From: Thermoanaerobaculia bacterium
GTDB taxonomy: Bacteria > Acidobacteriota > Thermoanaerobaculia > UBA5066
Direction: 5' to 3'
DNA: 64,000 nt
NCBI GenBank assembly: GCA_963816185.1
Contig: CAWFJJ010000024.1
Location: 96,001-160,000 of the forward strand
Positions within the stretch are counted from its first letter, which is position 1, and the number at the start of each line of letters is the position of its first letter. A program made the position numbers and the translations under genes. The notes under the pieces were generated by a model, which was given only the letters and a program-made list of their open reading frames with translations, was not told where the DNA came from and searched no databases. Shown here piece after piece: positions 26,236-56,235 of this stretch.

Positions 26236-29200
26236 TCACCGGAAGTCGTGGCTGGGAAGATCGGGCAGCGAGGGAAGCGGCCAGAACCGCTCGGCCCTCA
26301 CCGAGACGTTTCCGCCTTCCTTCTGGAGCTTTCCTTCCACGACGAGGCCTCCCGAGCCCACGATGACCGATCGATGCTTCCGGAAGAGGTCGGGGCGCAC
26401 GATGGCTTGCACGATGCCGCTTTCGTCCTCGAGCGACAGGAAGACGAAGCCCTTCGCCGTGCCCGGCCTCTGCCTCACGATGACGGCGCCCGCGGTTTTC
26501 ACCCGTTCGCCCTCGGGCACGTTCCGGAGCTCCCCGGCCGACAGGATCGACCGCGCCGCGAGCGCCGGACGCAGATGCTCGAGGAGGTGCGGGCCAGCCG
26601 TCATGTCCGTCGCGCGATAGTCGGCGGTCGTCTCCTGAATGGCTGACATCTCGGGAAGAGGAGATTTCTGCGAAGAGGAAGAAAGAGGGAGAGATTCATA
26701 GAGGGTGCCGAGGGGATGGGAGATCTCCGCGACTTGCCAGAGGGCCGTGCGGCGGGAGACGCCGAGGGACAAGAGGGAACCGGAGTAGGCGATCAAGGTC
26801 ATCTCGTCGGGACGGAGCCGGCAGCGGCGCTGAAAGTCCGCCACATCCCGGAACGGTCCTCCGCGCGTTCTTTCGGCTTCGATGGCTTCTCCCGTCGTCT
26901 GCTTCAGCCCCTTGATGAAACGCATGCCGAGACGCACGGAGAGAGGACCATGATTTGGTTGCTTATATGCGTCGGCCGCTGATGCGGCCGACGACAGGGG
27001 CGAATCTGTCCCCGGCGGGCCGCTTTCAAGGGCGCGCTTCGCGCGCCGTGCAGCGGTCGAAGACCCTTGACAGCGCTCCGCCGTCGGACGCCTGGCCGCC
27101 GGGATACCCCGCTCCTTCGCGCGTGAACTCGCTTCGCTCAGACAGCACGCGCGTGCGTCGCGAGGTACCCCGGCGTCCCGCGCCCTATTCATATTCGAAG
27201 AAAAATCTTCTTCTTTCTCTTCCTCTCTCTCTACCCGGCAATCCCATCCCGAAAAGTTCACGTCGATCGGCAGGACCGCAGTGCCCTTGCGCTGGATGTC
27301 CTTCAGGATCGTCGCGGGGTGGTAGAAGCCCATCGGCCACGCGTTCAGGAGGCACGCCGTGAACGCCGCCGGGTGGTGCGCCTTCAGCCACGCGCTCGCG
27401 TACGCGATGAGCGCGAAGCTGGCCGCGTGCGACTCGGGGAAGCCGTAGAGCGCGAACGACGTGATGGACTTGACGATCTGGTCCTGCGCGGGCCCCGTGA
27501 TGCCTTTTTTCGCCATGCCCGAGCGCAGCCGCTCTTCAATCGCGCCCATGCGCTCCTCGGAGCGCTTGAAGCCCATCGCGCGGCGCAGCTCTTCCGCCTC
27601 GCCGCCCGTGAAGCCCGCGGCCACCATCGCGATCCTGAGGAGCTGCTCCTGGAAGAGCGGTACGCCGAGCGTGCGCTTCAGGATCGGCTCGAGGCACGGG
27701 TGCGGATACTCGACCGGCGCCTTGCCCTGCCGCCGGTCGAAGAACGGGTGCACCATCCCGCCCACGATCGGCCCCGGCCGGATGATCGCGACCTGCACGA
27801 CGATGTCGTAGAAGACCTTCGGCGCGTGGCGCGGGCAGCGAAGCCATCTGCGCGCGGCTCTCGACCTGGAAGAGGCCGATCGTGTCGGCTGCGCGGAGCA
27901 GCTCGTACACCTTCGGGTCGTCCGCGGGCAGGTGCGCGAGGTCCACGTCCACGCCCTCGTGCGCCTTGATCAGGGGCAGCATCTTCTCGATCGCGCCCAG
28001 CATCCCGAGGCCGAGGAGATCCACCTTCACGATGCCGAGGTCCGCGCAGTCGTCCTTGTCCCACTGGATGACGACGCGCCCTTCCATCGCCGCGGGCTCG
28101 AGCGGCACGACCTCGGACAGCTTTCCCATCGCCACGACCATCCCGCCCGAGTGCTGTCCGAGGTGGCGCGGCAGGCTCTGGACGCGCATGAAAAGCTTCC
28201 CGAAGTGCGCGACGCGCGGGTGTGCGGGGTCGAAGCCGGCGGCCGCCATCTCCTTCGCGAGATCGGCCGCGCCGTCGCGGTACTCGCCGAAGCTCCACGC
28301 CCCGAGGTGCTTCGCGATCGTGTCCACCTGCTCCGGCGAGAAGCCCAGGGCCTTCGCCATCTCGCGCGCGGCCGAACGGTCGCGGTACGTGATGACGTTC
28401 GCCGTCATCGCCGCGCCGTCGGCGCCGTACGTTTTGTAGACGTGCTGGATCACCTTCTCGCGCGGGTCGCCCGAGGGCAGGTCGAGGTCGATGTCGGGCC
28501 ACTCCCCGCGCTCCTCCGAGAGGAAGCGCTCGAAGAGAAGCTCCATCTTCACGGGATCCACCGCCGTGATCGAGAGCGCGTAGCACACGGCGCTGTTCGC
28601 GGCCGAGCCGCGCCCCTGCACGAGGATGTGCTCCTTCTTGCAGAAGTTCACGATGTCCCAGACGATGAGGAAGTAGCCCGCGAGGTCCAGCTTCGCGATG
28701 AGGTCGAGCTCCCGCTGGATCTGCGCCTGCGCCTTTCCCGTGAGCGGCCGGAAGCGCGAGCGCGCGCCTTCCCACGTGACGTGCCTGAGGAACGACGACG
28801 GCGTCTCGCCCGGTGGCAGCGGGTACGCGGGGAAGCGGTAGCCGAGGTCCGCGAGCGTGAAGGAAAGGCGCCCGCGCGAGCTCGGCGCTCCTTTCGAGGA
28901 CGCCCGGCAGATCCGCGAAGAGGGCCTCCATGTCGGCCGCGGACTTCAGGTGGCGCTCGCGCCCCGCGTGCAGCTTCGTGCCGGCCGCGTCGAGGTGCGT
29001 GTGGTGGCGGATGCACGTGAGAGCGTCGAAGAGGTCCTTGTCCTTCCGCGCCGCGTAGCGCGCGCCGTTCGTCGCGAGGACCGGCAGGCGCGCGGCGAGA
29101 GCGAGATCGAGGAGCGCGCGATTCAGGTGCTCCTCCGCGCGCAGGAAGTGGCGCTGCAGCTCCACGTGAAGGCGCCCCGGGAAGAGCGCCGTGAGGCGGT

Positions 29201-29963
29201 CCAGCTCGCGGCGCGCCGCGTCGAAACCGCCCGTATCGCGCGACGTCAGCGCGCGCGTCACGACGCTCTCCTCGCCGCCCGTCAGGACGTGCAGCCCTTC
29301 CGCGTGCGCGGCGACCTCCTCCCACGTCGCGGCCGCCTGCCCCTTCGGCTTCCCTGCGGCGGCGGCGGTGAGAAGCGAGCAGAGGTTCCGGTAGCCCTTC
29401 TGGTTCTCGGCGAGCAGCGTCAGACGGGGATAAGAAATTCCTGCTGGGAGGGGAGGGGGAACGATTCCGAGAGGACCGGGAAGATTTTCTTCGAATGAGT
29501 GTGTGGGCGATTCGCCGCTTCTGCCCTCTTCCTCTTTACCTTTCAAAGAAATCTTGTTGCTCCATCCCCCGACGAGAGCCGGATGCGGAGCAAGAACGAC
29601 CTCCGCCCCGACGAGCGCTTTCACCCCCGCCGCCTTCGCTGCCTTCCAGAAGCGCGGGGCGCCGGAGAGGCCGTTCGTGTCCACGAGCGCCATCGCGGGA
29701 AGGCCGAGCGCCGCCGCACGCGCGACGAGGTCTTCCGGCAGAGACGACCCGTTCAGGAACGAGAACGCCGAGGCGACGCGCAGCTCGGCATACGGCCTCG
29801 CGCGCTTTGCGGGAGCGGGCGGCCGCGCGAACGCCCGCACGCGCGCTTTCTCCTTGCGTGCGCCGGGAGACGTGTACGCGCCGGGCTGCCCGGGTTTGAC
29901 GATCGGCCCGAGCATGTCGCGTCCCGGCGGCCCGCCGTGCTTCCCGCTGCCGCGCCCGTCCAT
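26236..29963 (-). CDS. dnaE2: Error-prone DNA polymerase DnaE2/ImuC; two apparent frameshifts (~28872, ~27834) and two in-frame repeat inserts
   Basis: YAEL..SAFSFL.G.S.PE PHP start, QGRGSAANSAVCY, PDIDLD, QHSGG, QWDKDD, GFPESHA, RQRPGTAKG, C-terminal SHDFR; three ORF pieces join after removing one base in each of two short homopolymers. Confidence 0.92.
26945..27232 (+). repeat. Dispersed element copy III with hairpin cassette (in frame in dnaE2)
   Basis: TATATGCGTCGGCCGC-TGAT-GCGGCCGACG; TCAAGGG-31nt-CCCTTGA; terminus ATTCGAAGAAAAATCT + pyrimidine tract. Confidence 0.85.
29430..29560. repeat. Dispersed element copy IV (in frame in dnaE2 PHP domain)
   Basis: AAGATTTTCTTCGAATGAG ... CCTTTCAAAGAAATCTT inverted pair. 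Confidence 0.7.
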
Positions 29964-29973
29964 GGGACGTGGA

Positions 29974-30002
29974 ATGTTAGACGTAAGTTAGACGTAAGTC
30001 AA
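29974..30002 (-). promoter_or_regulatory. Sigma70-type promoter of dnaE2 overlapped by ACTTACG direct repeats
   Basis: Minus strand TTGACT-N17-TAACAT; spacer region contains ACTTACG-N4-ACTTACG. Confidence 0.75.
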
Positions 30003-30032
30003 GAGCCAAAAGTCATCCTTCCGGGGCTCGCG

Positions 30033-30557
30033 TCAAGCGCCGACGCCGTACTTTTCCCGGAGGACGGCTAGGTGATGGCGGACGTGGCCGACGAGGATGT
30101 AAGCGAGCGCGCGCGGCGTGACGGGGAGCGCGTTCGCCAAGCCCACACGCACCCAGCCCGCGTCGTCGACGTGTCGCAGCATCAGGACGTGGCTCGCGCG
30201 GAGGCTCGTGAACTCTGCCGCGAGCGACGCGAGCGTGCGGAGGTCGGACCCAGCGTTTGCGGCGTAGTCGTTCTCCTCGAAGGGAGGCAGCGAGGCCTTG
30301 TCGCCGCGCGCGACGCAAAGCGCGCGATAGCCGAAGACACGTTCGGCGTCGAGCATGTGGCCGACGACGCCTCGGATCGTCCACTTGCCAGGCGCGTATC
30401 GGTACTCTTCACGTTCCGACGGGACGGACGCGAGGGCGGCGGTCAGCTCGGCCGGCTGGCTCTCGAGCGCAGCGAGGATGTCCGTCTCCGGGACGCGCGA
30501 AACGTAGCGCTCGAAAGCGACGTCGTATTCGTCAGGGCGCGGCCGGGAGCTCTTCAT
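30033..30557 (-). CDS. DinB/YfiT family protein
   Basis: RYAPGKWTI..VVGH.D.ERVF.YR, PFEEN.YA, GHVRHH. Confidence 0.88.
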   Translation of the reverse strand: MKSSRPRPDEYDVAFERYVSRVPETDILAALESQPAELTAALASVPSEREEYRYAPGKWTIRGVVGHMLDAERVFGYRALCVARGDKASLPPFEENDYAANAGSDLRTLASLAAEFTSLRASHVLMLRHVDDAGWVRVGLANALPVTPRALAYILVGHVRHHLAVLREKYGVGA

Positions 30558-31252
30558 GGCGGCATTTTGCCCCGGAAGGGCCGGGCGCGTCGCCTCCTGT
30601 CCGGCCGCTTGGACCGCTCGGGCGCACGCTCGAGCGCGGTGAGCCTGGGGGCGAGGTCCGAGGCGGCCCAGAACCCGAGGCCGCACTCCAACAGGCCCGT
30701 CTTGCGAAACTTCCGGCGATACCACGACGCGCGGCGCATCTTGAAACCCACGAGGTCTCCCTCGATTCCCGTCTCGAGGTCGTCGTCGGCCGAGAGGAAG
30801 TCGAGGTACGCGACGCCGGCCACGAGCTCCGGCAGCACCTCGAGGCCTGCCACGACCTCGGAGGCTCGCACGTAGTGGAGCGTGTCCGAGCACACGACGA
30901 GGTCGAACGGGTCGTCGAAGCGCAGCTCCGAGAGCTGGCCCCAGGAGCCCCGACGCACGTTGCGCGAGCGGCCGAAGCGCCGCACGGCGTAGTCGCTCGT
31001 GTCGAGGCCCAGATAGCGCACCCTCGGGCGTAGCGCGCGAAGGAGCGGGAACCACGCGCCCTCGCCGCAGCCCACGTCGAGCACCGAGTTGATCCGCCGG
31101 CCCAGCACGTGCTCCGCGACGCCTACGGCCATCGCGACCTTCCGCGCCACGCCTTCACGGCGCACGAGGCGCTTCTTCGGGTCGCGATACCACTTCCGGA
31201 AGTACGCCTCGTCGTAGAGCTTTCCCGTCAGACGAGGCCTTCCTTCTTCCAC
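30554..31252 (-). CDS. Class I SAM-dependent methyltransferase
   Basis: YDEAYF, VLDVGCGEG, FDLVVCSDTLHY. Confidence 0.85.
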   Translation of the reverse strand: MEEGRPRLTGKLYDEAYFRKWYRDPKKRLVRREGVARKVAMAVGVAEHVLGRRINSVLDVGCGEGAWFPLLRALRPRVRYLGLDTSDYAVRRFGRSRNVRRGSWGQLSELRFDDPFDLVVCSDTLHYVRASEVVAGLEVLPELVAGVAYLDFLSADDDLETGIEGDLVGFKMRRASWYRRKFRKTGLLECGLGFWAASDLAPRLTALERAPERSKRPDRRRRARPFRGKMPP

Positions 31253-31315
31253 CGTTCGTGGGCGAGGTCCGCCTTTTTCATTCGAGCCTCCGCCGGAATG
31301 CCGGTCGGTCCTGCG

Positions 31316-31642
31316 TCACGCCTTGACCATGACCAGGATCATCTTGAACGGTGTGATCGCTTTCAAGGCATGCGGCTCGTTCGCGGGGAGGCGAAGCAGA
31401 TCGCCGACCTTGACGCGGTGGGGGACCTTCGAGATCGAGACCTCGGCCTCGCCTTCGACCCCGAGGACGAGCGCGTCGAAGGGCGCGGAGTGCTCTGAGA
31501 GCGCCTCCCCCGTGTCGAACGCGAAGGCCGTCACCGTGCCGCCCGGCGCTTTGACGAGCGTGCGACTCACGACGGCGCCGGGTTGAAGCGCAACGAGCTC
31601 GGACTGGGGAACCGGAGTTGACGGAAGGGCCGGTGTTGGCAT
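31316..31642 (-). CDS. Cupin domain protein
   Basis: VVSRTL, FAFDTGEALSEHSAP, PANEPHAL; AGGAG RBS. Confidence 0.88.
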   Translation of the reverse strand: MPTPALPSTPVPQSELVALQPGAVVSRTLVKAPGGTVTAFAFDTGEALSEHSAPFDALVLGVEGEAEVSISKVPHRVKVGDLLRLPANEPHALKAITPFKMILVMVKA

Positions 31643-31695
31643 GAACGCTCCTTGCGATCCAACGATAGCGCCCTCTGGGAGCGCACGGGGAACGC

Positions 31696-32244
31696 CTACG
31701 GCGACGACGAAAGCTCCAGCTTCCTCAGGCGCGGTCCGACGAGCGTCCCGATGCGCGCGCCGGTGTCGAACAGGACGAGCCCGAAGAGCACGAGAGCGAC
31801 CGTGAAGGCGAGGAGCGCCCAATGATGCCGGCTTTCGAAGCGCTCGAGCGACGGCGCGAAGGCGACGAGCGCGAGGCTGGCGGCGACGACGATGACGGCG
31901 TCCACGCTCGCGCGCTGCCAGTAGCTTCCGCCGAGGTGCAGCCACATGCCGAACTCGTCGAACGTCAAGCCCATCGCGATGCCGTATGCCCACGCGGCGA
32001 GGTGCGCGGCCTTCCCCGCGGGCCGCGCGAAGAGGAGATACGCCGCCACTCCGGCGAGAAGGAAGATCCCGTAGTTCAGGTGGTGGACGTGCGTCCCGCG
32101 CAGGAAGAAGTACAGATTCGGGACGCGCTGCGACATGACGAGAAACACCATCGTCCGCGACGCGATGAAGGTCAGGGCGAAGGCGAGGAGCGAGCGGCGC
32201 GCGAGCCGGTCGGTCTCGTTTTCCGAAGGTGGAGTGGCATCCAC
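31696..32244 (-). CDS. Conserved membrane protein
   Basis: HVHHLNYGI and GLTFDEF..W motifs with 4-5 TM helices. Confidence 0.7.
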   Translation of the reverse strand: MDATPPSENETDRLARRSLLAFALTFIASRTMVFLVMSQRVPNLYFFLRGTHVHHLNYGIFLLAGVAAYLLFARPAGKAAHLAAWAYGIAMGLTFDEFGMWLHLGGSYWQRASVDAVIVVAASLALVAFAPSLERFESRHHWALLAFTVALVLFGLVLFDTGARIGTLVGPRLRKLELSSSP

Positions 32245-32267
32245 GCGAGAAAGGATAGCGGCCTTTG

Positions 32268-33845
32268 CTAGTCGTACACGCCGTCGGCGAACCACTCGCC
32301 GCCGGCCTCGTCGTGGAAGATGCGGTAAAGGCCTCCGCCCGAAAGCTCCACGTCCCAGTACGCGCGGAAGGCGGGTGCCTCCTGCCACCAGCCCTCCTCG
32401 AGGCGCCACGGGCCCGAAGCCACGCGCACGGTGCCGGCCACGTCCAGCGCCGGCCGCCCACCGCCGTCTGCGGAAGCGGGTTCGAGCGCGCGCAGCGAAG
32501 AGGGCCGCTCGCCCTCGAGAAGCACCTCGAGCGGCACGGGTGGACGGAGCACGCGAACCGAGAGAAGCCCGCGGCCGGTCTTCGGCGTCTTTCGCGCCGC
32601 GGGAGGAGGCGGCGGAGCGAACGGCACGAGGGCGAAGCGCTCGGGGCGATGGCCGTCCACGGCGCTCGGCGCGCCGACGCGCCCGGGCCCGAGCAGCGCG
32701 AACAGCTTCGCGAGCGCCGTCGCGAGACGGTCGGGCGAGATCTCGGCCGGCCCGAACAGCGTGAGCTGGCTCTTGCGCGGGGCGTCGGGCTGCGCCGTGA
32801 GGGAGAAGCCCGTGACGGCGGCGCCCGGCGGCCGGCCTTCGAGGCCGAGGCGCACGAGCGTGAGAAGCGTCTTCACGTCGCGCGTGGGCGCGGGCAGATC
32901 CAGGCTGCGCGTGTCGCAGCCCTCGGGGTCGAGCGTCAGGGAGATGTCCAGCCGCGCGCACCCTACGGCCTCCGCCTCGAGACGCCGCGCGAGGCGTTCG
33001 AGCGCGCTCTCGGCGAGCGCGAGGAATGGCTCGAGCGTGACGAGCGGCCACTCCAGCTCCATGCCTTCCGTGAAGCCCGGCGGCGGCCGGCGCGGTACGA
33101 GGGGGCGCGGGTCGCGCCCGCGCGCGATCTCGTGCAGCGCGTGCCCGCGCGCGCCGAGCCGGCTCGCGACGTCGGCCGCGGGCAGCTTCGCGAGGTCGCC
33201 CACCGAGGAGAGGCCCCAGCGCGCGAGCGTCTCGACGATCTCGGCATCGGGATCCAGCTTCGCGAGCGGCAGCGGTGCGAGAAACGCGGCTTCGCCGCCT
33301 GCGGGGACGGCGACGGGAGAGTCCGGCAGCGTCGCGGCCACGCGCGCGGCGAGCTTGCTCGACGCGAGCCCGCAGCGCGCGGGCAGCGACTCGCGCTTCG
33401 CGGCGGCGATCAGGGTGCGGCCGAGATCGCGCTCGTCGGGAAAAAGGCGCTCGAGGCCGTCCGCGTCGAGGTACACGACGCCGTCACCAGCGTCCTCCAC
33501 GCGCGGCGACACGGTGCCGGCCACGTCGAGAAGCGCCTCCATGGCGGCGCGCTCGCTCTCGGCGTCGCGCGCGCGGGTGAGAAGGTCGGGCACGAGCGCC
33601 CGCGCCTGCGGCAGCGTGAAGCCCGGGCGGATGCCGGCCTTGCGCGCCTTGCGCGTGGCCGCGACCACGTGCGCGGCCGTCCCGTTCCCCTCGCACAGAA
33701 TGACCGCCTCGTCCCGCAGCGCGGGCTCGCTGCGCAGCCGCGCGGCGAGGGGAAACAGCGGCACCACGAGACACGCGAGGCGTGGGGCGGGAACGGGAGA
33801 AGGTTGTTTTTGCTGCTCCCCGAGCACGGACGACGTTCGCTCCAT
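32268..33845 (-). CDS. imuB: ImuB, inactive Y-family polymerase
   Basis: A..AGI.PG.TL.QARAL, SPRVE, FLAPLP, GPWRLEEGWW, DGVYD C-terminus; next to imuA, near dnaE2. Confidence 0.9.
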   Translation of the reverse strand: MERTSSVLGEQQKQPSPVPAPRLACLVVPLFPLAARLRSEPALRDEAVILCEGNGTAAHVVAATRKARKAGIRPGFTLPQARALVPDLLTRARDAESERAAMEALLDVAGTVSPRVEDAGDGVVYLDADGLERLFPDERDLGRTLIAAAKRESLPARCGLASSKLAARVAATLPDSPVAVPAGGEAAFLAPLPLAKLDPDAEIVETLARWGLSSVGDLAKLPAADVASRLGARGHALHEIARGRDPRPLVPRRPPPGFTEGMELEWPLVTLEPFLALAESALERLARRLEAEAVGCARLDISLTLDPEGCDTRSLDLPAPTRDVKTLLTLVRLGLEGRPPGAAVTGFSLTAQPDAPRKSQLTLFGPAEISPDRLATALAKLFALLGPGRVGAPSAVDGHRPERFALVPFAPPPPPAARKTPKTGRGLLSVRVLRPPVPLEVLLEGERPSSLRALEPASADGGGRPALDVAGTVRVASGPWRLEEGWWQEAPAFRAYWDVELSGGGLYRIFHDEAGGEWFADGVYD

Positions 33846-33870
33846 GCCTGCTGTGCCCCGCTTTTCATCA

Positions 33871-34225
33871 GGATGTTTTTCTTAGAAGGTGAATATCCCC
33901 GGCTCCAACACCCTCAGCGCGTGAATGCGGACAACCGGCCTGAAAACGCAACGGCGAAGATTTCTTTCTTCTGATATGCGGCGGCTGCAGTTGCAGCCCT
34001 GGCCGGCCTGATTGGACGCGGGGGGTCCGGGGGCGCCCGAAGGCAAGCCCCCGGAGAGCGCGCGCAAGCGCGCCGCGCAGCGGTCTTCGATCCTTGACAT
34101 CGGTCATTCGGGAAATACACGTTCCCCACACTCAGCGCCCGAATGCGGACAAATGACCGGAGAACAAAGTGGCATGCTCTCTTTCCTTTTCCTCTCTTTC
34201 TAAGAAAATTTTCTTTCTTTCTTCC
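33871..34225 (+). repeat. Dispersed element copy V with hairpin cassette (imuA 3' end / imuB leader)
   Basis: TTTTTCTTAGAAGGTGAA ... CTTTCTAAGAAAATT; ATATGCGGCGGCTGC; CCTTGACATCGGTCATTCGGGAAATAC identical to copy IX. Confidence 0.85.
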
Positions 34226-34968
34226 TTGCCTGTCTGAATCGCATCCAGCAGGGAAAGATTCAGCAGGCTCGTCTTTTCTTTCATCTTCGCGTCCCGCGTC
34301 TTCTCGAGCACGAGGCGTGAGGACAGGCCGTCGAGGAGCGACACGCTCTGCGGCCAGCGGTCCAAGCACGCGCGGTCCCAGCCCGCCCGCGCCGCATCGG
34401 CCGCGAGCACGATGCGCGCCGCGGTGCCTGTGACGCGGTAGGGCGCGAGGACGAGGAGCGCCGCGTCGTGAAAGCGCGCGCGACGCGCGAGGCGCAGCCA
34501 GACGGCGTCGTCGAAACGCCGCCTGAAGATGCGTGAGAGCCCGAGGTCGAGGACGACGAGCGCGAAGCCCGTCGCGAGGACGGTCTCGGCCGCGGCGAGC
34601 GCGGGTTTCAACCCGCGGGGGCGCAGCCACAGCACCCGCGAGAGCTCGGCGCCGGCGGCGGCCGCGCCCTGCGGGTCGAAGTGGTCGCCGGGATCCACGA
34701 GCGCGGCGGCTTCGCCCGTCTGCGTCGTCGCGGCGAGCGCGGAGAGGGCCACCGAGAAGCGGCCCGAGGACATGCGCCCCGACATCTCCACGAGAGCGCC
34801 GCGGGGCAGCCCGCCTCCCAGCAGCCGGTCCAGTCCCTCGATTCGCGTGGGCAGAAACTCCGGCGCGAACCGTTCGCGCGAAAGTCCGGAGGCGGTGGTC
34901 AGCCGGGCGGCGATCTCTCGAGGTAAGTCAGGCAGGGGCAGCGGGGCGGGAAGAGACAGCGCCGACAC
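34132..34968 (-). CDS. imuA: ImuA/RecA-like accessory protein
   Basis: GLDRLLGGGLPRGALVE, degenerate Walker A SSGRFS, FDP..A..AG, LVVLDL; C-terminal ~45 aa lie in an AT-rich repeat element. Confidence 0.85.
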   Translation of the reverse strand: MSALSLPAPLPLPDLPREIAARLTTASGLSRERFAPEFLPTRIEGLDRLLGGGLPRGALVEMSGRMSSGRFSVALSALAATTQTGEAAALVDPGDHFDPQGAAAAGAELSRVLWLRPRGLKPALAAAETVLATGFALVVLDLGLSRIFRRRFDDAVWLRLARRARFHDAALLVLAPYRVTGTAARIVLAADAARAGWDRACLDRWPQSVSLLDGLSSRLVLEKTRDAKMKEKTSLLNLSLLDAIQTGKEERKKIFLEREEKEREHATLFSGHLSAFGR

Positions 34969-34974
34969 GCGGCA

Positions 34975-35012
34975 AACGTAGGTCCGCTCGAGACGTAAGT
35001 CAAGCGTAAGTT
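34975..35012 (-). promoter_or_regulatory. Sigma70-type promoter of imuA-imuB overlapped by ACTTACG direct repeats; probably leaderless
   Basis: Minus strand TTGACT-N17-TACGTT; ACTTACG-N4-ACTTACG straddles the -35; predicted start site coincides with GTG at 34968. Confidence 0.75.
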
Positions 35013-35032
35013 TTTATGGCTGGGAAGAGGCT

Positions 35033-38868: not shown

Positions 38869-40955
38869 CGAACGGCGCCCCTCTTCAGAGCCTGCTCTCC
38901 GAAAAACGCTTCGATCTCGTCGAAACTGCCTTCCTGGACGCGCTCTCGGATCCCGTCGCGAAATCCGAAACGCTGCTCGCGGCGGTGCGCGGCCTCGCCC
39001 GGGCCGGCCAGAAGGCACGTCTTCAAGGGGTCGCCGGAATGGCCGAGGCCGAGCTGAAGGGGAAATCCTCCGACTCGGCCACGGCGCGCCTTCGCTGGAC
39101 GATCCTGAAGGAAGCGGTGCGCGCCGGGGCGACACCCTCTACGCCCGACGGCTTTCACAGGCTCTTCGAAGAAGTCCTGGCCGCCGCCTGGCCGTCCCAT
39201 CCGTCGCTCCCGGCCCTCCTCGGTCGCTTCAAGTTCCGCGAGGCGAAGGATCCCGCGGACGGGCTCGCGCGGGCCGAGAGGGCCGAGAAGTGGCTGCCGT
39301 TCGAGGTCGGCCGCGTCTTTTCGATGGCGGGCCGCGGGGCAGGCAAGGTCGTCGAGACGAACTTCGCTCTCGACTCCGTTCGCATGGACTTCGAGGCGGC
39401 GAAGGGAATCGCGATTCCGATCGGCGTGGCGTCGAAGGGCCTGGTGCCGCTTCACGAGGGGCATTTCCTGTTCGAGAAGCTCACGGCTCCCGGCGCCCTG
39501 AGGGAGCGAGTCGTCGCCGACCCCGGCCTCGCCCTGAAGCATCTCATCGAGTCCTTCGGCCGCTCGCTCACGATGGCCGAGGTGAAGGAGGCCGTGAAGG
39601 GCCTGATCACGGAGGACGCGTGGAGCTCGTGGTGGGCCGCGGCGCGCAAGAATCCGCAGGCCGTCGTACACGGGAGCGGAAAGACCGCGACGGTGGAATG
39701 GTCGCACTCGGCGGATGCGGCGGACGCCTCTCTTCTTGCGCGCTTCGAGAAAGCTTCGCTGAGGGACCAGATCGACCTCTTCCGGAAGAATCAGAAGCGC
39801 TCGGCGGAGCTCGCCATCGCCATGGCCAGGGCGCTCGCGAAGGAGGCCGAGGCGCTCGAGGACCGGGATCCCGCGCTCGCTTTCGAGATCGCGGTCCTCG
39901 TCGAGAAAATTCCGAGCGTCTCTCTCGCGGGCGCAATCGAGAAACACGTTCTCGGGCAGCCGTTGGCGCTCCTCCCGCGCCTCACGGACCGCGTGATGCG
40001 CGAGCGGGCCCTGGAGATCGTCGTCAAGGAGCGGCCTGCGGAGGCTCCCGGGATCCTCGCGGACTGGTTCTTCAAAGAGGAGGACGTGCGCACGCTCGAA
40101 GCGATCGACCGTCGCCTCGCCGAGATCGAGCCCGACACGCGCGAGCGCACGCTCGAGAAGCTCCTCAAGTCGCCCCGCGTGGGGCCGCGCGCGTTCGTCT
40201 GGTTTGCGCAGCGTTCCGCTCAGGACGAGTCCTTCCGGGCCCGCCTCAACCCGGCGGTTCTCTCGCGCCTTCTCGACGCGCTCACGTGGGACGAGCTGGG
40301 AGCCGCCCGCTCGAAGGTGAGGGAGATGTTCGACCGGACCGGTCTGGTGGCCGGCTGGCTCGTGAAGCAGGCCACCGTCGAGGACGCGCGCGTCTTTCTC
40401 GAAGCGCTCTCGCGCCACCACGAGCTCGAGCCGCACCGGCGCGACGGGCTCGTGGCCGCCGCCGAGATGCGCTTCCCCGATCTCAGGCGAACGGAGGACG
40501 ACACCTTCTTCGTCACGGCCCCGGCGATCGAGGCAAAGCGCAAGGAGCTGGAGAACATCCTGAAGGTCGAGATCCCCGAGAACACGAAGGGGATCGCGCT
40601 CGCGGCCGCAGAAGGTGATCTCACGGAGAACTTCGAGTACAAGGCGCGGCGCGAGAAACAGCAGCTCCTGTCGGCTCGCGCGGGCAAGATCCAGGAGGAG
40701 CTCGGGAAAGCGCGCGCCCTCGACTCCGCGACGGTGGACACGACCGAGGTGCGGCCGGGAGCCCGGGTGACCCTGAAGGGCGCGAAAGGCGCGAAGACCG
40801 CCACGCTCCTGGGGCCCTGGGATTCGAAACCCGAAGAGGGCGTCTATTCGTATCTCTCGGATCTGGGAAAAGCGCTGCTCGGAAAGACGGTCGGGGAGAA
40901 GGCGAACGTGCTCGGAGAAGAGATGACGATCGAGAAGATAGAGGTCTTCGTATAG
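38865..40955 (+). CDS. greA: Long GreA-family transcription elongation factor with large N-terminal helical extension
   Basis: C-terminal ~155 aa: EIPEN..I..A..EGDLTENFEYKA.R, LLGPWDS.PE...SY.S.LG..LLG. Confidence 0.8.
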   Translation: MTNGAPLQSLLSEKRFDLVETAFLDALSDPVAKSETLLAAVRGLARAGQKARLQGVAGMAEAELKGKSSDSATARLRWTILKEAVRAGATPSTPDGFHRLFEEVLAAAWPSHPSLPALLGRFKFREAKDPADGLARAERAEKWLPFEVGRVFSMAGRGAGKVVETNFALDSVRMDFEAAKGIAIPIGVASKGLVPLHEGHFLFEKLTAPGALRERVVADPGLALKHLIESFGRSLTMAEVKEAVKGLITEDAWSSWWAAARKNPQAVVHGSGKTATVEWSHSADAADASLLARFEKASLRDQIDLFRKNQKRSAELAIAMARALAKEAEALEDRDPALAFEIAVLVEKIPSVSLAGAIEKHVLGQPLALLPRLTDRVMRERALEIVVKERPAEAPGILADWFFKEEDVRTLEAIDRRLAEIEPDTRERTLEKLLKSPRVGPRAFVWFAQRSAQDESFRARLNPAVLSRLLDALTWDELGAARSKVREMFDRTGLVAGWLVKQATVEDARVFLEALSRHHELEPHRRDGLVAAAEMRFPDLRRTEDDTFFVTAPAIEAKRKELENILKVEIPENTKGIALAAAEGDLTENFEYKARREKQQLLSARAGKIQEELGKARALDSATVDTTEVRPGARVTLKGAKGAKTATLLGPWDSKPEEGVYSYLSDLGKALLGKTVGEKANVLGEEMTIEKIEVFV

Positions 40956-41188
40956 AAAGATCGAAGACTTTGCTTCGGATGAGGATTCGGATCTCGGATT
41001 TTCTTAGAAAGGTGGAGGAAGCAATGCGCGACAAGGACGGCACCGGCGGCAGGGCGGCGGCGGTCCCCGTTCACCTTCTAAGAAAAGCGCCATCGCGCGC
41101 TGCGAGAGGTCTGCTCGTGCGTGCCAGCGGAGCCCGAGGGGTCTTTCTCTTTCTAAGCAGAATCTCTCTCCTCTTCTTCGTCTTCTTC
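40956..41188. repeat. Dispersed element copy VII (nested pairs of termini)
   Basis: Inner TTTTCTTAGAAAGGTGGA ... TTCACCTTCTAAGAAAA; outer AGACTTTGCTTCGGATGAG ... CTCTTTCTAAGCAGAATCT. Confidence 0.8.
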
Positions 41189-47130: not shown

Positions 47131-48179
47131 TGCTCACGCTGCCGCCGATGGACCTCGGGCTCGTGGTGCGCAGCCACGGCTGGTACGACTTGCCTCCATT
47201 CGAATGGGACGCGAAAGAAAAGACCCTGGGATTGATTTTCTTAGAAGGAGAATGCCCCGTACGAGTCGAGGTGGCGGAGCAGCCGGGCGGACTGGTTGCT
47301 CAGGCTCGGGCCATCGCGCCTTCGGCGCGGGAGACCGATTTCTCATATGCGGCGGCTGCTGTGCAGCCGCCGATAGCAGCAAATCTGTCCTCGGATGGCG
47401 GGAGTCAAGGGCGCGCTGCGCGCGCCGCGAAGCGGTCGAAGACCCTTGACACCCGCCTTCCGAGGAAGATCTCTTTCTCTTTCAAAGCAAATCTCTCTTC
47501 GGACGTTCCATCCGAGGCCTCGGTTCGTCGTGCGCTGGAACGGGTCCTCGATCTGAAAGCGGATCTTTCTTCTTTCCACTCCCTCTGCGCCGGGGACCCG
47601 CGCTTCGCGTGGGTCGCCCGGCGCGGGGCGGGGCGGATCCTGCGCGCGCCGACTCTGTTCGAGGACGCCGTAAAGGTCCTCGCGACGACGAACTGCACCT
47701 GGGGTCTGACGAAGCTCATGGTGAACAATCTGATCGAACGCTTCGATCGGGGCGGGGCATTTCCGGATGCGCCCTTCGTCGCGGGCCTTTCCGCGCGCTC
47801 TCTCGCCGCTGCGAAATGGGGTTACCGTGCGCCTTATCTCACCGCGTTCGCGCGGCGCGTCGCCTCGGGAAAGCTGGATCTCGCGCGCTGGGAGGATCCG
47901 GACCTTCCCGACGAGGAGGTCGAGAAGGAGATCCGCGCGGAGAAAGGCTTCGGCCCTTATGCCGCCGACACGCTGGGGCGGCTTCTCGGGCGGCACCGCA
48001 AGCTGGGCCTCGACGCCTGGTCTCGCAAGAAGGTCGCGACCCTGAGGTTTCGGGGCCGCGCCGTGAAGGACGCGCGCGTCGCGCGCTTCTACGCGTCGTT
48101 CGGACCGCACGCGGGCCTCGCGTTCTGGCTCGACATGACGCACGACTGGCACGAGGAGAAGGAGACCGTGTGGCCCTGA
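47127..48179 (+). CDS. AlkA/Ogg-like HhH-GPD DNA glycosylase with in-frame repeat insert
   Basis: SHGW.DLPPF, GRILRAPTLFED.VK....TNC.W, GYRA, KGFGPYAA HhH; ~65 aa insert at ~47307-47510. Confidence 0.78.
   Translation: MMLTLPPMDLGLVVRSHGWYDLPPFEWDAKEKTLGLIFLEGECPVRVEVAEQPGGLVAQARAIAPSARETDFSYAAAAVQPPIAANLSSDGGSQGRAARAAKRSKTLDTRLPRKISFSFKANLSSDVPSEASVRRALERVLDLKADLSSFHSLCAGDPRFAWVARRGAGRILRAPTLFEDAVKVLATTNCTWGLTKLMVNNLIERFDRGGAFPDAPFVAGLSARSLAAAKWGYRAPYLTAFARRVASGKLDLARWEDPDLPDEEVEKEIRAEKGFGPYAADTLGRLLGRHRKLGLDAWSRKKVATLRFRGRAVKDARVARFYASFGPHAGLAFWLDMTHDWHEEKETVWP
47231..47500 (+). repeat. Dispersed element copy VIII with hairpin cassette (in frame in DNA glycosylase)
   Basis: GATTTTCTTAGAAGGAGAA; CATATGCGGCGGCTGC-TGT-GCAGCCGCCG; GTCAAGGG-31nt-CCCTTGAC; CTTTCAAAGCAAATCTCTCTTC. 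Confidence 0.88.
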
Positions 48180-50692: not shown

Positions 50693-50699
50693 TCAGATT

Positions 50700-51900: not shown

Positions 51901-51908
51901 ACGGACAA

Positions 51909-51934: not shown

Positions 51935-51954
51935 CCGCGGGAGCGCGGTCGCGG

Positions 51955-52281
51955 CTAGTTCTTCCCCGGGTCCTTCAGATCCTCCCCCTTCACGGTCGCG
52001 GTCGCATCGTGCCCGAAGCCCCCTGAAACCTTGATCGTGAGATCGGTCTTCGCGGGAGGCGCGAAGTCGAACACTCCCTTCGCGTTCGTGCGCCCGGTGA
52101 GAAGGACCTTTCCCTTTGCGTCCGAAACCTGGACCGGCACGTCGCCCACCGGCTCGCCGTCGCTGAAGTACGCTTCGACGTGGACCCGGCCCTTCACGAC
52201 CTCCGCCCAGACGGCGACGTCGTGGGCGAGGGCGGTCCCGGTGGCCGCGAGGAGCAACGCGAGAACGAAAGCACGTTTCAT
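51955..52281 (-). CDS. Small secreted protein of metal-uptake operon (transthyretin/carboxypeptidase-regulatory-like fold)
   Basis: Signal peptide ending ALA-H, YFSDGEP, G.T...G.F.F, GH motif. Confidence 0.65.
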   Translation of the reverse strand: MKRAFVLALLLAATGTALAHDVAVWAEVVKGRVHVEAYFSDGEPVGDVPVQVSDAKGKVLLTGRTNAKGVFDFAPPAKTDLTIKVSGGFGHDATATVKGEDLKDPGKN

Positions 52282-53162
52282 GAGATGACCTCCCGGCGCC
52301 CGAAAAGGGGACGCCACGCGAGCGTGAGATAGAAGAGGGCGGTCGAGACGAGCGCGATCGCGCCGCCCGTCGGAACGGGGAGAAACCCGGAGAGAAACAG
52401 CCCTCCCGCGGCGGCGAGCGTGGAAAGGGCGACGCTCGCGAAGAAGAACTGGCGCAGGTTGGAGGCCACGTTCTGCGCCGCGGCGGCGGGCACGACGATC
52501 ATGACGAGGACGAGCAGCGCTCCCACGAGCTTCAGGCCGGCGACGACGACGGCCGTCGCGAGCGTCACGAAGACGTAGTCGAGAAGCGCGGGCCGTTTCC
52601 CGCGCGCGGCCGCCAGCGACGGGCTCAGGCTCGCGAGCACGAGGTCGTTGAACAGGAATCCTCCGGCGAGCGCGGCGAGGGCCGCCGTCGCGAGCAGGAT
52701 CGCGAGGTCCGCATCGCGCAGCGTGAGGAGGCTTCCGAAGAGCGTCCCCTCGATCTGGTGGATGTCGAAGCGTTTCGAGACGAGCGCCACCATGAGAACG
52801 CCGAGGCCCAGCGTCTGCGCGAGGAAGAGACCCGTGACGGTGTCGGACGGGACACGGCCGCGATGCTGGACGAACGTGACGAGGATCGCCGAGGCGAAGC
52901 AGAAGCCGTAGAGGCCGGCCCAGGTGGATCCGGGCGGCTCGCCGAGGAGAAGGCCGAGAGCGGTTCCCGTCATCGCGGCGTTCCCGATCGCCTGCGTGAA
53001 GAACGACATCCGCCTCGCCACGACGAGGGTGCCGAGCCCGCCGAAGAGCGGCCCGAGAAGGAGCGCGCCGAGGAGCCCGCGGATCATGAACGTGTGGACG
53101 AAGATCGCGGGCAGGAACCCCGCGCGCGCCCAGCCGGCCACGGCCTCGTAGGCGCCGCTCAC
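52278..53162 (-). CDS. Zn/Mn ABC transporter permease (ZnuB/MntB family)
   Basis: LG..VV.RRMSF, LFGS.L, VGALLV....VPAAAA. Confidence 0.88.
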   Translation of the reverse strand: MSGAYEAVAGWARAGFLPAIFVHTFMIRGLLGALLLGPLFGGLGTLVVARRMSFFTQAIGNAAMTGTALGLLLGEPPGSTWAGLYGFCFASAILVTFVQHRGRVPSDTVTGLFLAQTLGLGVLMVALVSKRFDIHQIEGTLFGSLLTLRDADLAILLATAALAALAGGFLFNDLVLASLSPSLAAARGKRPALLDYVFVTLATAVVVAGLKLVGALLVLVMIVVPAAAAQNVASNLRQFFFASVALSTLAAAGGLFLSGFLPVPTGGAIALVSTALFYLTLAWRPLFGRREVIS

Positions 53163-53860
53163 CGCGCGTTCCCTTCTGCGACGAGATCCGATTCGGAAAG
53201 CCGTCCCGGATCGCCGGTCGACACGATTTTCCGGTTCAGGACGGTGACGCGCGCGCAGAGCCGCGCGAGGAGGCCCCGGTCGTGCTCGACGAGAAGAATG
53301 GCCGCTCCTTGCCGCGCAAGGCGCGTGAGAAGCGCTTCGATGAGGCGCGTCCCGTCCTCGTCCACATGGCTCGCCGGCTCGTCGAGGACCAGAAGCTTCG
53401 GCTGCGGAACGAGCGCCTGCGCGAGAAGGACGCGGCGCAGCTCGCCGCCGGAAAGCTCGGGAAGGCGCCGCGAGGCGAGGGCGTCGGTTCCCGTCTCGGC
53501 GAGCGCGGAGGCGATGCGCGCGCGCAGCGCCTGAGGGCGCCGCCCGAGGACGGGAGCGCGGCGGAGCGCGAGCGCGAGGAAGTCGGAGACGGAGACGGGC
53601 AGCGCGGGATCGAGGTCGAGGCTCTGCGGCACGTAGCCGATCGGCTCGCCGGGAGAGAGCGCGAGTCGGATCGTGCCCGTGAACGGCACGCGGCCGAGAA
53701 GGCATTGCAGCAGCGTCGTCTTTCCGGCGCCGTTCGGACCGGTGAGCCCGTGGACTTCGCCCGCGAAGACGTCGAGGTCGACGCCGTCGAGCGCGAGGTC
53801 GCGCCCGCGCGCCGCGCGGAGCCCGCGGATCGCCACGACCGGGGCCGCCGGGACGTTCAC
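53159..53860 (-). CDS. Zn/Mn ABC transporter ATPase
   Basis: GPNGAGKTT, GYVPQ, LSGGE, LDEP, VEHD. Confidence 0.92.
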   Translation of the reverse strand: MNVPAAPVVAIRGLRAARGRDLALDGVDLDVFAGEVHGLTGPNGAGKTTLLQCLLGRVPFTGTIRLALSPGEPIGYVPQSLDLDPALPVSVSDFLALALRRAPVLGRRPQALRARIASALAETGTDALASRRLPELSGGELRRVLLAQALVPQPKLLVLDEPASHVDEDGTRLIEALLTRLARQGAAILLVEHDRGLLARLCARVTVLNRKIVSTGDPGRLSESDLVAEGNAR

Positions 53861-54746
53861 GGGCGGCGCCCCGCGACGGCCCGGCGGCGTCGACGATCGC
53901 GTCGAGGTTCGCCTTCGTATCGCGCTCGAATCGGTCTTTCGAATCGTCGCCGCCCGTCATGTGCGTGAGCCGGAAGAGGCGGCACCCGGTCTCCTTCTCG
54001 ATCGTGTCGACGTACCGGCCGGCGAGACCCATTTCCATGAAGAGCACGTTCACGCGCGCGGCCTTGATGCGGGCGATCGTGTCGGCGAGCTGCTTCGCCG
54101 AGGGCTCCAGGCCGTGCCGGGGCTGGACGACCGCCTCGACGGTCAGGCCGAGATCCGAGAAGAGATACGCGTAGCCGTCGTGGACCGTGGCGATGTGGAC
54201 GGCGGAAAGATCGAGCCCGTCGAGGCGCGCGAGCGCCTCCGCGAGAAGGTGCCGCAGCCTTTTCGTGTACGCCCTCGCGTTCTCCTCGAAGAGGGACGCG
54301 TCCTCGGGGTCGAGTCGGGAGAGGTCTTTGGCGAGCGTCTGGATCTGCTGCGACGCCGCGAGAACGGAGAGGAAGGAATGGGGGTTCACGCCGCCCGAGG
54401 CGCTGCGAAGGAGCGGGACGCCGCGGTTCGGGTCGAGGCGCGTGAGGCCGTCTCTTCCCGCGGCCTTCAGCATCGGCTCGAGGAAGGCGTCGTGGCCGAG
54501 CCCGTTCACGACGACGGCGTCCAGCGACTCGATCGCCGCGAGGTCGTCGGGACGCGGCTGGTACGAGTGCGGGTCCGCGCCGGCGGGCACGACGGGCACG
54601 ACGGTGACGGCGTCTCCGCCCACGTTCGCGACCCACGAGTAATAGGGGTTGAGCGTGACCCCGATGCGCAGCGGATGCGCCGGCGAGCCGGCGGCGGGGA
54701 GCGCCGCGAGACAGGCGAACGCGAGCGGTGCGGCGAGGGCTTTCAA
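53857..54746 (-). CDS. Zn/Mn ABC substrate-binding protein; apparent frameshift ~53880
   Basis: DPHSY, NPH, HDGYAY, EPSAKQL; a one-base shift near the end restores TGA at 53857-53859. Confidence 0.88.
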
Positions 54747-56172
54747 CGTTGTCCTCCGGCGCCGGCTTCGCCGTCGAGCGCGACGAGCTGATACCAGCCG
54801 TCCGTCGCGGGGAAGGCGCCGGGCACGCCGTGCCGCCCTTCAGGATCCAGACCTCGGCGGCGACGCGCGGCCGGGGGCGAGCGGCGCGCGTGGGGATGCC
54901 CTGGTCGAGGCCGGCCATGGCCCTCTCGGAGAGGCGAAGCAGGAAAGCCGTCCGCCGGCCCTTCGGGTCCAGCCCCGCGTAGTCCGCGGACGCGCCGTCC
55001 GCGCGGCGTTTCCAATCGAGGCCGCGCGCTCCGGCGGGGAGGAGCGCAGGCGCGAAGGGCGGGATCTCGTCCGCGGCGAGAGCCGGGATCTCCGGCCACG
55101 CTCCGCTCTTCCTCTCTGGTCCGTGATGGCGTCGACCGAGACGAGGAGCGCCTGGAAAATGGTCTGGTCCGTCCCCGCGAGGACCGAGGTCGCCGCGGGC
55201 GCGCCGGAGCGGTCGAGGGTCTTCACGCGCACAGCCCCGGCGACGAGAAGATCGCCAGCGCCGCGCCGACCCACGCGGCTTCCCGGGCGGCGCTCGGCGG
55301 GCGGACGACGCGTCCCGGCGCGTCCACGAGGTGCATCATCGCGCCCGCCCCGCGCCGAACCGGACCCGCAGTGTGGCGCTCGTGACCTCGGACGGCGGCT
55401 CCGCCGGGTCGGACGGGTATTCGGTCAGCCTCCTGCTGCGATCCGTGGCGGGCACGTCGGCGGCGAGGAGAGCCGCGCCGTTCCCCGCCGCCGCGACGAC
55501 TTCCTTCCAGCCCGCGCGGCCTTCGAAGTTCGTGTCGGAGAACGTCACCGCCGCGACGCCTTCCTTCGAGACGATCGCCTCGAGGTCCAGCGTCAGTCGC
55601 GCGGTGGGGAGGTCCGCGACTCCGGGCGCGAACTCGAGCGCGCTCCTGACGATGGTGAGCGCGACGCGCGCGCCTCCAACGGTGAGAACGAGGCCCGGAA
55701 GAAAGCGCGCGGCGAGGTCGTCCCGCATCTTCGCGAGCGCCTCCCCCCGCGGCGCGCTCGTCAGGCTCGAATCCGACAGCGCCTTCTGCGTCGGGATCTC
55801 CGCGAAATCGATCACGTGCGTCACGTCGATGCCCCCCGCGCGCGGCGACAGCCGCGTCCAGCGGTTCACGGAGAAATTGCCCATGGGATGGGAGAGAGAT
55901 TTTGCTGAAGAGAAGAGAAGAAAGAGGAAGACAAATACAGAGAAAGATTTTCTTAGAAGGGAAGAGGGGAACGGGGCTGTTCCTGATGCAGCCGCCGCGA
56001 GAAGAGAAACGCTTCCATTTCTTATATGCGGCGGCTGCTGATGCGGCCGCCGATAGATGGAAATCTGTTCCCGAATGACCGATGTCAAGGGTCGGCGACC
56101 GCTGCGCGGCGCGCGAAGCGCGCCCTTGACATCGGTCATTCGGGAAATACGGTCCCGCTCTCTCTTATTCAT
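54743..56172 (-). CDS. Secreted protein with HPMGNF N-terminal domain typical of Ni/Co transporter-associated proteins; C-terminal half broken by frameshifts
   Basis: HPMGNFSVNR, D.AEIPT, GWKEVV, S.RLT.YP.D; ATG overlaps TPR gene stop; N-terminus reads through a repeat element. Confidence 0.6.
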
Positions 56173-56235
56173 TAGCAGAAATCTCTTTCTTCGTCTCTCC
56201 GTCTATCTCTTTCTCGATCTCCTCCTTCATCCTTC
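55893..56235 (+). repeat. Dispersed element copy IX with hairpin cassette (perfect 24-bp stem)
   Basis: AGATTTTCTTAGAAGGGAAG; TATATGCGGCGGCTGC-TGAT-GCGGCCGCCG; 56068-56091 / 56123-56146 perfect inverted repeat; TTCATTAGCAGAAATCTCT. Confidence 0.9.

Follow-up and report, generated by a model that had tools for sequence, protein, structure and literature searches.

Introduction

The inverted terminal repeats (ITRs) of parvoviruses such as adeno-associated virus (AAV) fold into a T shape at the termini of the genome, where hairpin-primed replication and nicking by Rep give rise to flip and flop isomers. Integron attC sites, which are recognised as folded single strands, are imperfect palindromes that combine conserved inner boxes with a centre that varies and is branched in some cases. 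Here we analyse a 64,000-nt stretch of DNA (68% GC) from a Thermoanaerobaculia bacterium (assembly GCA_963816185.1, contig CAWFJJ010000024.1, positions 96,001-160,000 of the forward strand; hereafter the window, or W). It carries four copies of a cassette that combines a branched hairpin (the T hairpin), whose 31-nt centre (the core) occurs in both orientations, with a hairpin (hp1) similar to repetitive extragenic palindromes (REPs). Orthologous copies in related genomes reveal that the centre has inverted in place. We regard it as probable that the cassettes form a non-autonomous repeat family of nested palindromes, akin to REPs, bacterial interspersed mosaic elements (BIMEs), MITEs (miniature transposable elements with inverted repeats) and Rickettsia palindromic elements (RPEs), and that their arms drive spontaneous inversion of the centre.

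Among described chromosomal repeats, REP superfamilies are defined by a GTAG or CGTC tetranucleotide at one end, and REPs are on record inside genes, often those for replication and repair (PMC3733652). RPEs are palindromic repeats that lie in frame in unrelated housekeeping genes and are translated as surface loops (PMC10969869). Template switching inverts hairpin loops in place and creates compensated stem changes (PMC8794818), and mini-hairpins of the GCGNAGC type are unusually stable in DNA (PMC3201870 and PMC13037366).

Architecture of the Element

A sequence-only reading of the window had described four cassettes in which a 7-bp stem encloses the core, one of them reduced to core and right arm. 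All four lie where that reading placed them, and the cores that it quoted read as given. The cassette is thus real, but the repeat unit is larger than described, as it also comprises the REP-like hairpin ATAT-GCGGCGGCTGC-loop-GCAGCCGCCG and linkers; the pairing stem is likewise about 22 bp long rather than 7 bp, and forms 23 perfect pairs in copy D. A covariance model trained on 80 family members recovered just these four sites in the window at E <= 3.5e-6. A fifth match at 29175-29277 (22.7 bits, E 0.004) lies in GC-rich coding DNA and was judged to be due to chance. Judged by hp1 and linker, the element is oriented on the plus strand in all four copies; the strands given below for T hairpins are those of the core.

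26965..26997, plus strand: hp1 of copy A, with the variant stem CGTCGGCCGC/GCGGCCGACG, a compensated double change; repeat family D5
27009..27087, plus strand: T hairpin of copy A (75.9 bits, E 7e-16; DNA fold z -2.43)
33974..33998, plus strand: truncated hp1 of copy B, the reference copy of repeat family D5
34026..34114, plus strand: degraded T hairpin of copy B (35.6 bits, E 3.5e-6; unfolded, z -0.38)
47345..47376, plus strand: hp1 of copy C, from direct reading and repeat search
47388..47466, plus strand: T hairpin of copy C (95.9 bits; DNA fold z by strand: plus -7.4, minus -7.9)
56024..56056, plus strand: hp1 of copy D, from direct reading and repeat search
56068..56146, minus strand: T hairpin of copy D (101.1 bits on the minus versus 59.9 on the plus strand; fold z -12; perfect 23-bp stem)

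Counted between its two ATAT ends and including them, a complete element is about 165 nt long. Its left half consists of TTCT-N-ATAT, a first hairpin (hp1a, with a 10-bp GC stem and a 4-nt loop), the linker AAATCTGT, a variable stem of about 22 bp that ends in the invariant GTCAAGGG, and the core; the right half continues from the core with CCCTTGAC, the second stem arm, the linker AATACGTT, an inverted hp1b and ATAT-N-AGAA. In complete copies the palindrome runs outward to TTCT-N-ATAT and ATAT-N-AGAA. The core itself is made of three pieces, mini-hairpin 1 (CGCGC-TNC-GCGCG), mini-hairpin 2 (CCGC-GNA-GCGG) and a 7-mer TC-NNN-GA, all of which are enclosed by the outer stem in copy A. In the window hp1 reads ATAT-GCGGCGGCTGC-TGAT-GCAGCCGCCG-ATAG; across the family it has a 10-bp stem and a loop of 3-4 nt. 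In eight complete elements an hp1 stands at either end, the two being inverted relative to each other; most copies have just one.

Copies B and D depart from this layout. The core of D is reversed relative to its hp1, its linker and its ortholog (locus L046). As the sequence-only reading had noticed, 28 of 31 positions agree between the core at 27033 and the reverse complement of the one at 56092; the covariance model accordingly prefers the minus strand. Copy B (34059-34118) retains an un-inverted core and a right arm identical to that of D over 27 nt, as had also been read; its left arm has been swapped for an unrelated small hairpin.

Family Size and Structural Covariation

The family was sampled by a single hp1 pattern scan over species-representative genomes, and all counts given here come from the matches listed and are lower bounds. 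The scan returned at least 102 stretches, 90 of which, from 19 metagenome-assembled genomes (MAGs), have family context; the remaining 12 are from unrelated taxa and match by the pattern alone. The locus DNA around the family members (loci are labelled L001 and so on) totals 786 kb at 90 loci and represents parts of genomes. Regular-expression searches of the listed loci and the window gave 85 T-hairpin candidates, five of which were removed by eye as false, leaving a set of 80; the listed loci hold at least 77 copies beyond those of the window. An independent covariance-model search of L001-L100 gave 159 strand-hits at about 80 sites. These results support the original view of a dispersed, structured, non-coding repeat family, and both isomers occur in many independently assembled MAGs, so the isomers are neither a one-off nor a read artefact. 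Nearly all of the 19 host MAGs among the matches listed are labelled Thermoanaerobaculia or Acidobacteriota, and in the sample scanned the family is confined to Thermoanaerobaculia-type Acidobacteriota. One bin labelled Acidithiobacillales holds 12 family loci (L004, L008, L020, L027, L041, L051, L052, L060, L079, L084, L087 and L092); its dnaE2 locus is 77-78% identical to that of the window, and by content it resembles a Thermoanaerobaculia-type genome.

The large, high-copy family is apparently undescribed, as the sequence-only reading had supposed. Rfam at its gathering threshold finds only a selenocysteine tRNA in the window, and at E <= 1 it gives no match to 55900-56300. The literature search returned no description, although the supplementary tables of PMC3733652 may list Acidobacteria repeats. 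A plasmid or phage origin was considered and dropped, since a blastn search with copy D matched none of the 72,556 plasmid and 50,697 phage sequences compared.

Alignment of the 80 copies in core orientation provides strong evidence for the stem: standard pairs fill 95.1% of cells, compared with 31-40% when the partners are slid. In the outer stem 11 of 22 pairs change on both sides (207 cells), values that none of 500 shuffles reached; within the window, this part of the stem in C and A differs in sequence from D and keeps its complementarity. The inner 8 bp (GTCAAGGG/CCCTTGAC) and the stems of both mini-hairpins are nearly invariant, with compensated change only in mini-hairpin 1 of two copies. 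Half of the copies (40/80) are mismatched at stem position 16-65, most often as A.A (22) or T.T (10). Two pairs of hp1 also covary across 102 stretches: one is T-A in 89, C-G in 12 and T.G in 1, and the other is G-C in 96, T-A in 5 and G.T in 1.

The loops follow a rule. The loop of mini-hairpin 1 is TNC in 68 of 80 copies, that of mini-hairpin 2 is GNA in as many, and 60 copies combine the two; exactly one GCGNAGC motif is found per strand in 54 copies; the earlier remark that GNA loops typically occur once per strand thus holds family-wide. The centre of TC-NNN-GA, by comparison, is free (GAA in 28, TTC in 12, and many others). The long stem folds better than shuffled sequences in C and D (z -7.4 to -12) and modestly so in A (z -2.4). 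Under standard energy parameters the core has several folds that are nearly equal, among them the T shape with two mini-hairpins, which is the minimum free energy structure only for the minus strand of C. Among mismatched cells, G.T and A.C are similarly frequent in core orientation (27 versus 29), and on the sense strand of the local genes they number 16 and 27. Because G.T is not favoured over A.C, nothing points to folding of a single RNA strand.

Inversion in Place

Both orientations of the core are common. Relative to an exact hp1, mini-hairpin 1 is proximal in 49 copies and distal in 24, with hp1 on both sides in four and on neither in three; scored against the AATCT linker, the two states number 50 and 21, with nine undecided. 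Flip and flop isomers, first proposed from the four window copies, are real and common in the family, and single genomes, that of the window for example, hold both states.

Flanks were aligned with the central 340 nt masked, which yielded 40 orthologous pairs in 13 groups. Both orientations are present in 15 of the 40 pairs and in 7 of the 13 groups, with collinear flanks. Copy D and its ortholog align in full except for the reversed core between identical arms. Among the dnaE2 copies described below, read in the sense of the gene, the window and L003 share one state, L092 and L049 are reversed in the T hairpin only, and in L035 the whole element from hp1 to hp1 is reversed. The outer-stem sequence is specific to this locus group, which favours a single insertion in an ancestor over several separate ones. 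As the core is inverted between orthologs with unchanged flanks, even inside the dnaE2 frame, inversion occurs in place and needs no copying step. The sequence-only reading had taken the flip as a sign of copying by nick-and-strand-transfer or hairpin resolution, and this part of it is not supported. In one stem family, some copies have the T.T/A.A mismatch inverted along with the core and in others it stays behind, thus indicating that the end points of inversion vary along the arms.

Orientation is opposite in 7 of the 17 orthologous pairs with at least 84% flank identity. A rough two-state estimate, which treats non-independent pairs with constrained flanks, suggests that inversion would proceed at about ten times the per-site substitution rate. 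On this estimate inversion is rare per generation and needs no dedicated enzyme. Mechanistically, the palindromic arms would let the asymmetric centre invert in place, most likely by replication template switching or by arm-to-arm recombination, and this could act at more than one nesting level, on the T hairpin alone or on the whole hp1-to-hp1 element. The element itself would have spread via a trans-acting enzyme; this mode of mobility, like the molecular route of inversion, is inferred.

Copies Within and Between Genes

Two of the four window cassettes lie in an imuA-imuB-dnaE2 mutagenesis gene set, which was assigned using Pfam and also includes methyltransferase and cupin genes between imuB and dnaE2:

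26239-35013, minus strand: imuA-imuB-dnaE2 gene set
34135-35013, minus strand: RecA-like ImuA
32271-33881, minus strand: Y-family ImuB
26239-29963, minus strand: dnaE2 (imuC)
26935..27243, minus strand: composite in-frame insertion in dnaE2, made up of hp1, the T hairpin, one extra hairpin module and a purine-rich end

The dnaE2 frame takes in copy A between the finger and HhH/beta-binding domains, both of which are supported by Pfam. The insertion adds about 93 residues, so that query residues 242-347 correspond to 821-833 of E. coli Pol III alpha. The same insertion is found in five MAGs (the window, L003, L035, L049 and L092), and the frame is open in all of them although orientation changes the encoded peptide. 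The extra module of copy A, about 100 nt at 27088-27190, lies between the T hairpin and the purine-rich end; L003 has hp1b there. The window's dnaE2 occupies three different frames, owing to what look like single-base frameshifts near 28870 and 27832. The gene is continuous at both points in L035 and L092, and at the second (~27832) in L003; the split window gene is either a recent pseudogene or a product of assembly indel errors. The PHP domain of dnaE2 has a second low-GC in-frame stretch at 29470-29580, where 212 residues match a 164-position profile; it contains two inverted motifs similar to the M motif described below, and neither hp1 nor a T hairpin.

At least 12 of the 80 copies are intragenic and in frame with homology support on both sides: five in dnaE2, three in a MobA-like domain, two in uvrA, one in a carbamoyltransferase and one in an ABC-F protein. 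The uvrA gene of L030 holds two cassettes, at which query residues 236-282 correspond to 189-200 and 648-785 to 564-585 of T. maritima UvrA. Pfam places cassettes within the MobA-like domain in L001 and L094, with L006 added by flank orthology alone, between two carbamoyltransferase domains in L062, and before the C-terminal domain of the ABC-F protein in L022. A further case in AcrB (L098) has homology support on one side only. Searching a protein database with the translated cassette, restricted to longer proteins, supported one of 1,276 candidates, a further ABC-F protein, and is too weak to size the spread.

Of the other window copies, B has imuA and imuB on its two sides, C comes after the gene for a class A penicillin-binding protein, and D after a TPR gene. 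Elsewhere the window encodes housekeeping functions (fatty-acid synthesis, glycosyltransferases, respiratory complexes, a zinc ABC transporter and an ECF sigma factor). The selenocysteine tRNA gene is at 59246-59344 (Rfam 60.5 bits; ARAGORN anticodon TCA). A DUF4331 gene (57434-59080, minus strand) is apparently split into two open reading frames (ORFs) that match profile positions 1-120 and 251-421, and a PALP-domain gene at 60979-61940 seems to be cut short; both cases may again reflect frameshifts in the assembly.

Modularity, Flanking Sequences and Mobility

The modules of the cassette are separable. In the orthologous loci L039, L058, L073 and L090, hp1 is present in all four, while the T hairpin is found in L058 and L090 in mutually inverted orientation, absent from L073 and replaced in L039; L091 bears a cassette where the window (40943-41141) has other sequence. 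Gain, loss and swapping of modules at orthologous sites, together with the placement of copies in short intergenic spacers, amount to behaviour of the REP/REPIN/BIME or MITE type (REPINs are doublets of inverted REPs). As in MITEs, the elements have terminal inverted repeats, small size and no coding capacity. Searches between the distant hp1 pairs at L019, L043, L048, L064, L066 and L101 for an autonomous element returned just housekeeping genes, and clustering of the locus ORFs for a multi-copy protein family returned orthologous sets plus one Ser/Thr kinase family, with no transposase.

Copy B is flanked by a 39-nt direct repeat that occurs at this locus only in the 786 kb searched, and which looks like either a long target duplication or a local tandem duplication. 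Several copies also adjoin a low-GC palindrome, the M motif (CTTCTAAGAAAATCT), identified by motif scan:

33909..33947, no strand assigned: left 39-nt direct repeat at copy B (79% identity, spacing 218 nt)
34127..34165, no strand assigned: right 39-nt direct repeat at copy B, containing the imuA stop codon
55945..55959, minus strand: M motif adjoining cassette D
33874-33888, minus strand, and 34197-34211, plus strand: M-like motifs flanking copy B
47233-47247, minus strand, and 47480-47494, plus strand: M-like motifs flanking copy C

The M motif has 14 matches in the window at <=3 mismatches compared with 0.24 expected, and it resembles the two outer flanks of the element joined together. Further examples lie at 13715, 38088, 38165, 40996 and 41075; most are intergenic, often after TTCACC, and they sometimes occur as pairs about 80 nt apart. 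Relative to L046, the window has a 67-nt insertion (55943-56018) just upstream of the hp1 of D that contains an M motif and half an hp1. From its sequence the motif may be an empty site or the outermost shell of the palindrome, and its role may be that of a target site, an outer repeat shell or an operator. Flank symmetry suggests that the motif could be an empty target site, but no orthologous filled/empty pair was found for hp1 itself.

The sequence-only reading had placed the mobilising enzyme elsewhere in the genome and suggested looking for HUH, RAYT or similar genes flanked by the cassette. No such gene was found in the 786 kb sampled around 90 family loci: a regular expression for HUH/Y1 motifs found nothing there, phmmer with E. 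coli RayT found no match among 6,536 six-frame ORF segments, and Pfam detected no HUH/Y1 transposase in 113 selected ORFs. The scanned ORFs of the window likewise contain no transposase, integrase or HUH protein according to Pfam.

Sequence Constraint

Core stems are more constrained than their surroundings. Between orthologs, stem and junction columns of the core are identical in 1397 of 1440 comparisons (97%), compared with 281 of 400 (70%) for loop columns and 75-91% identity in the flanks; compensated double changes in the outer stem account for 34 of 600 comparisons. Spacers between co-directional genes are over-represented (27 of 33 classifiable, versus 274 among all 455 gene pairs; p = 0.012). 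With respect to local transcription the copies are randomly oriented: hp1 points the same way as the genes 14 times and the opposite way 12 times, and the core splits 29 to 31. A strand-specific RNA element was rejected on account of this random orientation together with the G.T frequency, which does not exceed that of A.C. The invariant inner stem holds two outward-facing TTGACA hexamers, for which the promoter scan's rule found no matching -10 element; consensus scans at C and D found neither a promoter of the sigma-70 type nor a coinciding intrinsic terminator. We infer that the invariant core and inner stem could be a protein recognition site that acts on DNA and not on RNA.

Comparison with Described Systems

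Like REPs, hp1 is a GC-rich imperfect palindrome of 24-33 nt that occurs in high copy, mostly between genes. It differs in its ends, which read ATAT... and ...GATAG instead of carrying a GTAG or CGTC tag; CGTC is seen only in a minor variant of hp1 (5/102), within the stem. The eight complete elements, two inverted hp1 around a spacer, match the description of REPINs, but the spacer here, about 110 nt in length, is a branched hairpin that is conserved and has an invariant core of its own. The mosaic combination with other conserved motifs is BIME-like, and persistence of copies at orthologous sites is shared with REPs and REPINs. REP/REPIN-RAYT systems also include a single-copy Y1 (RAYT) transposase gene flanked by the repeats, which was not found in the 786 kb sampled, and the host phylum here is other than Proteobacteria. 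RPEs and intragenic MITEs resemble it in being palindromic repeats of roughly 100-300 nt that insert in frame and leave the host frame open; unlike RPEs, the present copies are mostly intergenic, unrelated in sequence and built of separable modules with a flipping centre.

The geometry of AAV ITRs, two small palindromes inside a long stem and an asymmetric centre that flips, is also that of the T hairpin. A parvoviral terminal hairpin would nonetheless be a replicon end served by an HUH Rep, whereas the family copies all sit in the interior of contigs, in or among housekeeping genes, and flip at fixed sites, with no Rep/HUH gene found in 786 kb. The attC sites share a conserved inner part and a variable branched centre, but here there is no R/L box consensus, no cassette array (copies in the window are spaced 7-13 kb apart among housekeeping genes) and no integrase in the scanned window ORFs. 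The closest precedent for the inversion itself is that of template-switch minute inversions, in which a hairpin loop inverts in place with unchanged flanks and compensatory stem changes; those in PMC8794818 are sporadic events in single-copy sequences, while the inversions described here recur across a family, at nested levels, and involve a structured 'loop' of 31 nt. The branched core, the one DNA-type mini-hairpin per strand and the recurrent nested inversion are distinctive of this family.

Interpretation

One alternative is that the T hairpin is the working end of a single-stranded DNA (ssDNA) mobile element, which an HUH-type enzyme encoded elsewhere (RAYT, IS200/IS605, IS91 or Rep-like) nicks and copies, with flip and flop as a parvovirus-like by-product. 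The AAV-type geometry of a long stem with two internal palindromes, the abundance of both isomers, the single GCGNAGC-type mini-hairpin per strand in 54 of 80 copies and a wobble usage that lacks RNA-type strand bias would all suit such an element, as would the similarity of hp1 to REPs and of complete elements to REPIN doublets; invariant core stems with free loop centres also look like a protein recognition site. We nevertheless consider this explanation unlikely. Flips at fixed orthologous sites with unchanged flanks, even within an ORF, make copying unnecessary, and end points that range from the core only, to past the stem mismatch, to the whole element fit homology-driven events better than a fixed nick site. 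Moreover, no Y1/HUH protein was detected in the 786 kb around 90 loci or in the ORFs scanned with Pfam, and most hp1 copies lack the GTAG or CGTC tag of described REP superfamilies. If site-specific enzymology were instead invoked as a programmed switch, with an invertase flipping the core as an on/off control, the frequency of both orientations, also within single genomes, would be explained; however, the 31-nt invertible segment between abutting arms is too short for a looped duplex synapse, the copies lie in unrelated contexts that include protein-coding loops, and opposite orientation in 7 of 17 close pairs, by the rough estimate about ten times the per-site substitution rate, would make switching very rare per generation. 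With no recombinase seen in the Pfam-scanned ORFs either, we give a programmed switch almost no credence.

A quite different possibility is that the element serves the host, in the manner of an E. coli BIME, as a site where gyrase or a nucleoid or repair protein binds or cleaves, or as an mRNA-stabilising or processing hairpin between cistrons, and that its spread is secondary. Identity of 97% in the core stems of orthologs against 75-91% in the flanks, the GNA/TNC loop rule (60/80), enrichment between co-directional genes (p = 0.012) and the paired TTGACA hexamers of the inner stem are consistent with such a role. An RNA-level function is hard to reconcile with random orientation relative to transcription and with the lack of wobble bias on the sense strand (16 G.T, 27 A.C), and consensus scans revealed no sigma-70-type promoter or intrinsic terminator at C or D. 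Some copies lie inside coding sequences, and the element may be present, missing or replaced from one ortholog to the next, which shows that none of the sites is essential by itself; we regard a primary host function as rather improbable.

A non-autonomous family of nested palindromes whose centre inverts spontaneously thus remains the probable explanation, and several observations weigh against it. The eight complete copies show no regular target-site duplication, flanking direct repeats being seen only at copy B, and neither a transposase of any kind nor a parent element with the same ends was found in the scanned DNA near the copies. Judged from sequence conservation, the core stems of old copies are kept near-invariant, unlike decaying selfish DNA, which points to host-level function, gene conversion or continued recognition by a protein. 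The isomer ratio of about 2:1 departs from the 1:1 equilibrium of free neutral flipping, and inversion is known only from its outcomes. In addition, the sample was picked by hp1 and gives lower bounds on copy number and on T hairpins that lack hp1, and the gene calls at the loci are crude and GC3-based.

More speculatively, the core and inner stem (GTCAAGGG, two GCGNAGC-type mini-hairpins, one per strand, and CCCTTGAC) could be the folded-DNA site of a dedicated enzyme that spreads the cassette and keeps old copies intact, a proposal that we put forward as doubtful. If true, it would represent a long-lived chromosomal partnership resembling that of REPINs and RAYTs, operating on a parvovirus-like three-way DNA hairpin, and flip-flop would be part of the enzyme's chemistry instead of a replication accident.

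These findings bring to light a large, structured family of repeats in a bacterial class that is uncultured and poorly known. They also provide unusually clean natural evidence that a branched hairpin inverts in place repeatedly: it has done so in 7 of the 13 groups of orthologs, on two levels of nesting and even within an ORF. Rickettsia-style in-frame palindromic insertion extends to the Acidobacteriota, notably to the repair and replication genes dnaE2 and uvrA. In this clade the repeats will mislead gene callers and assemblers, giving spurious long ORFs and extended C-termini. The near-invariant core of old copies raises the concrete question of which protein reads this DNA shape, and a binding or nicking protein can now be sought.

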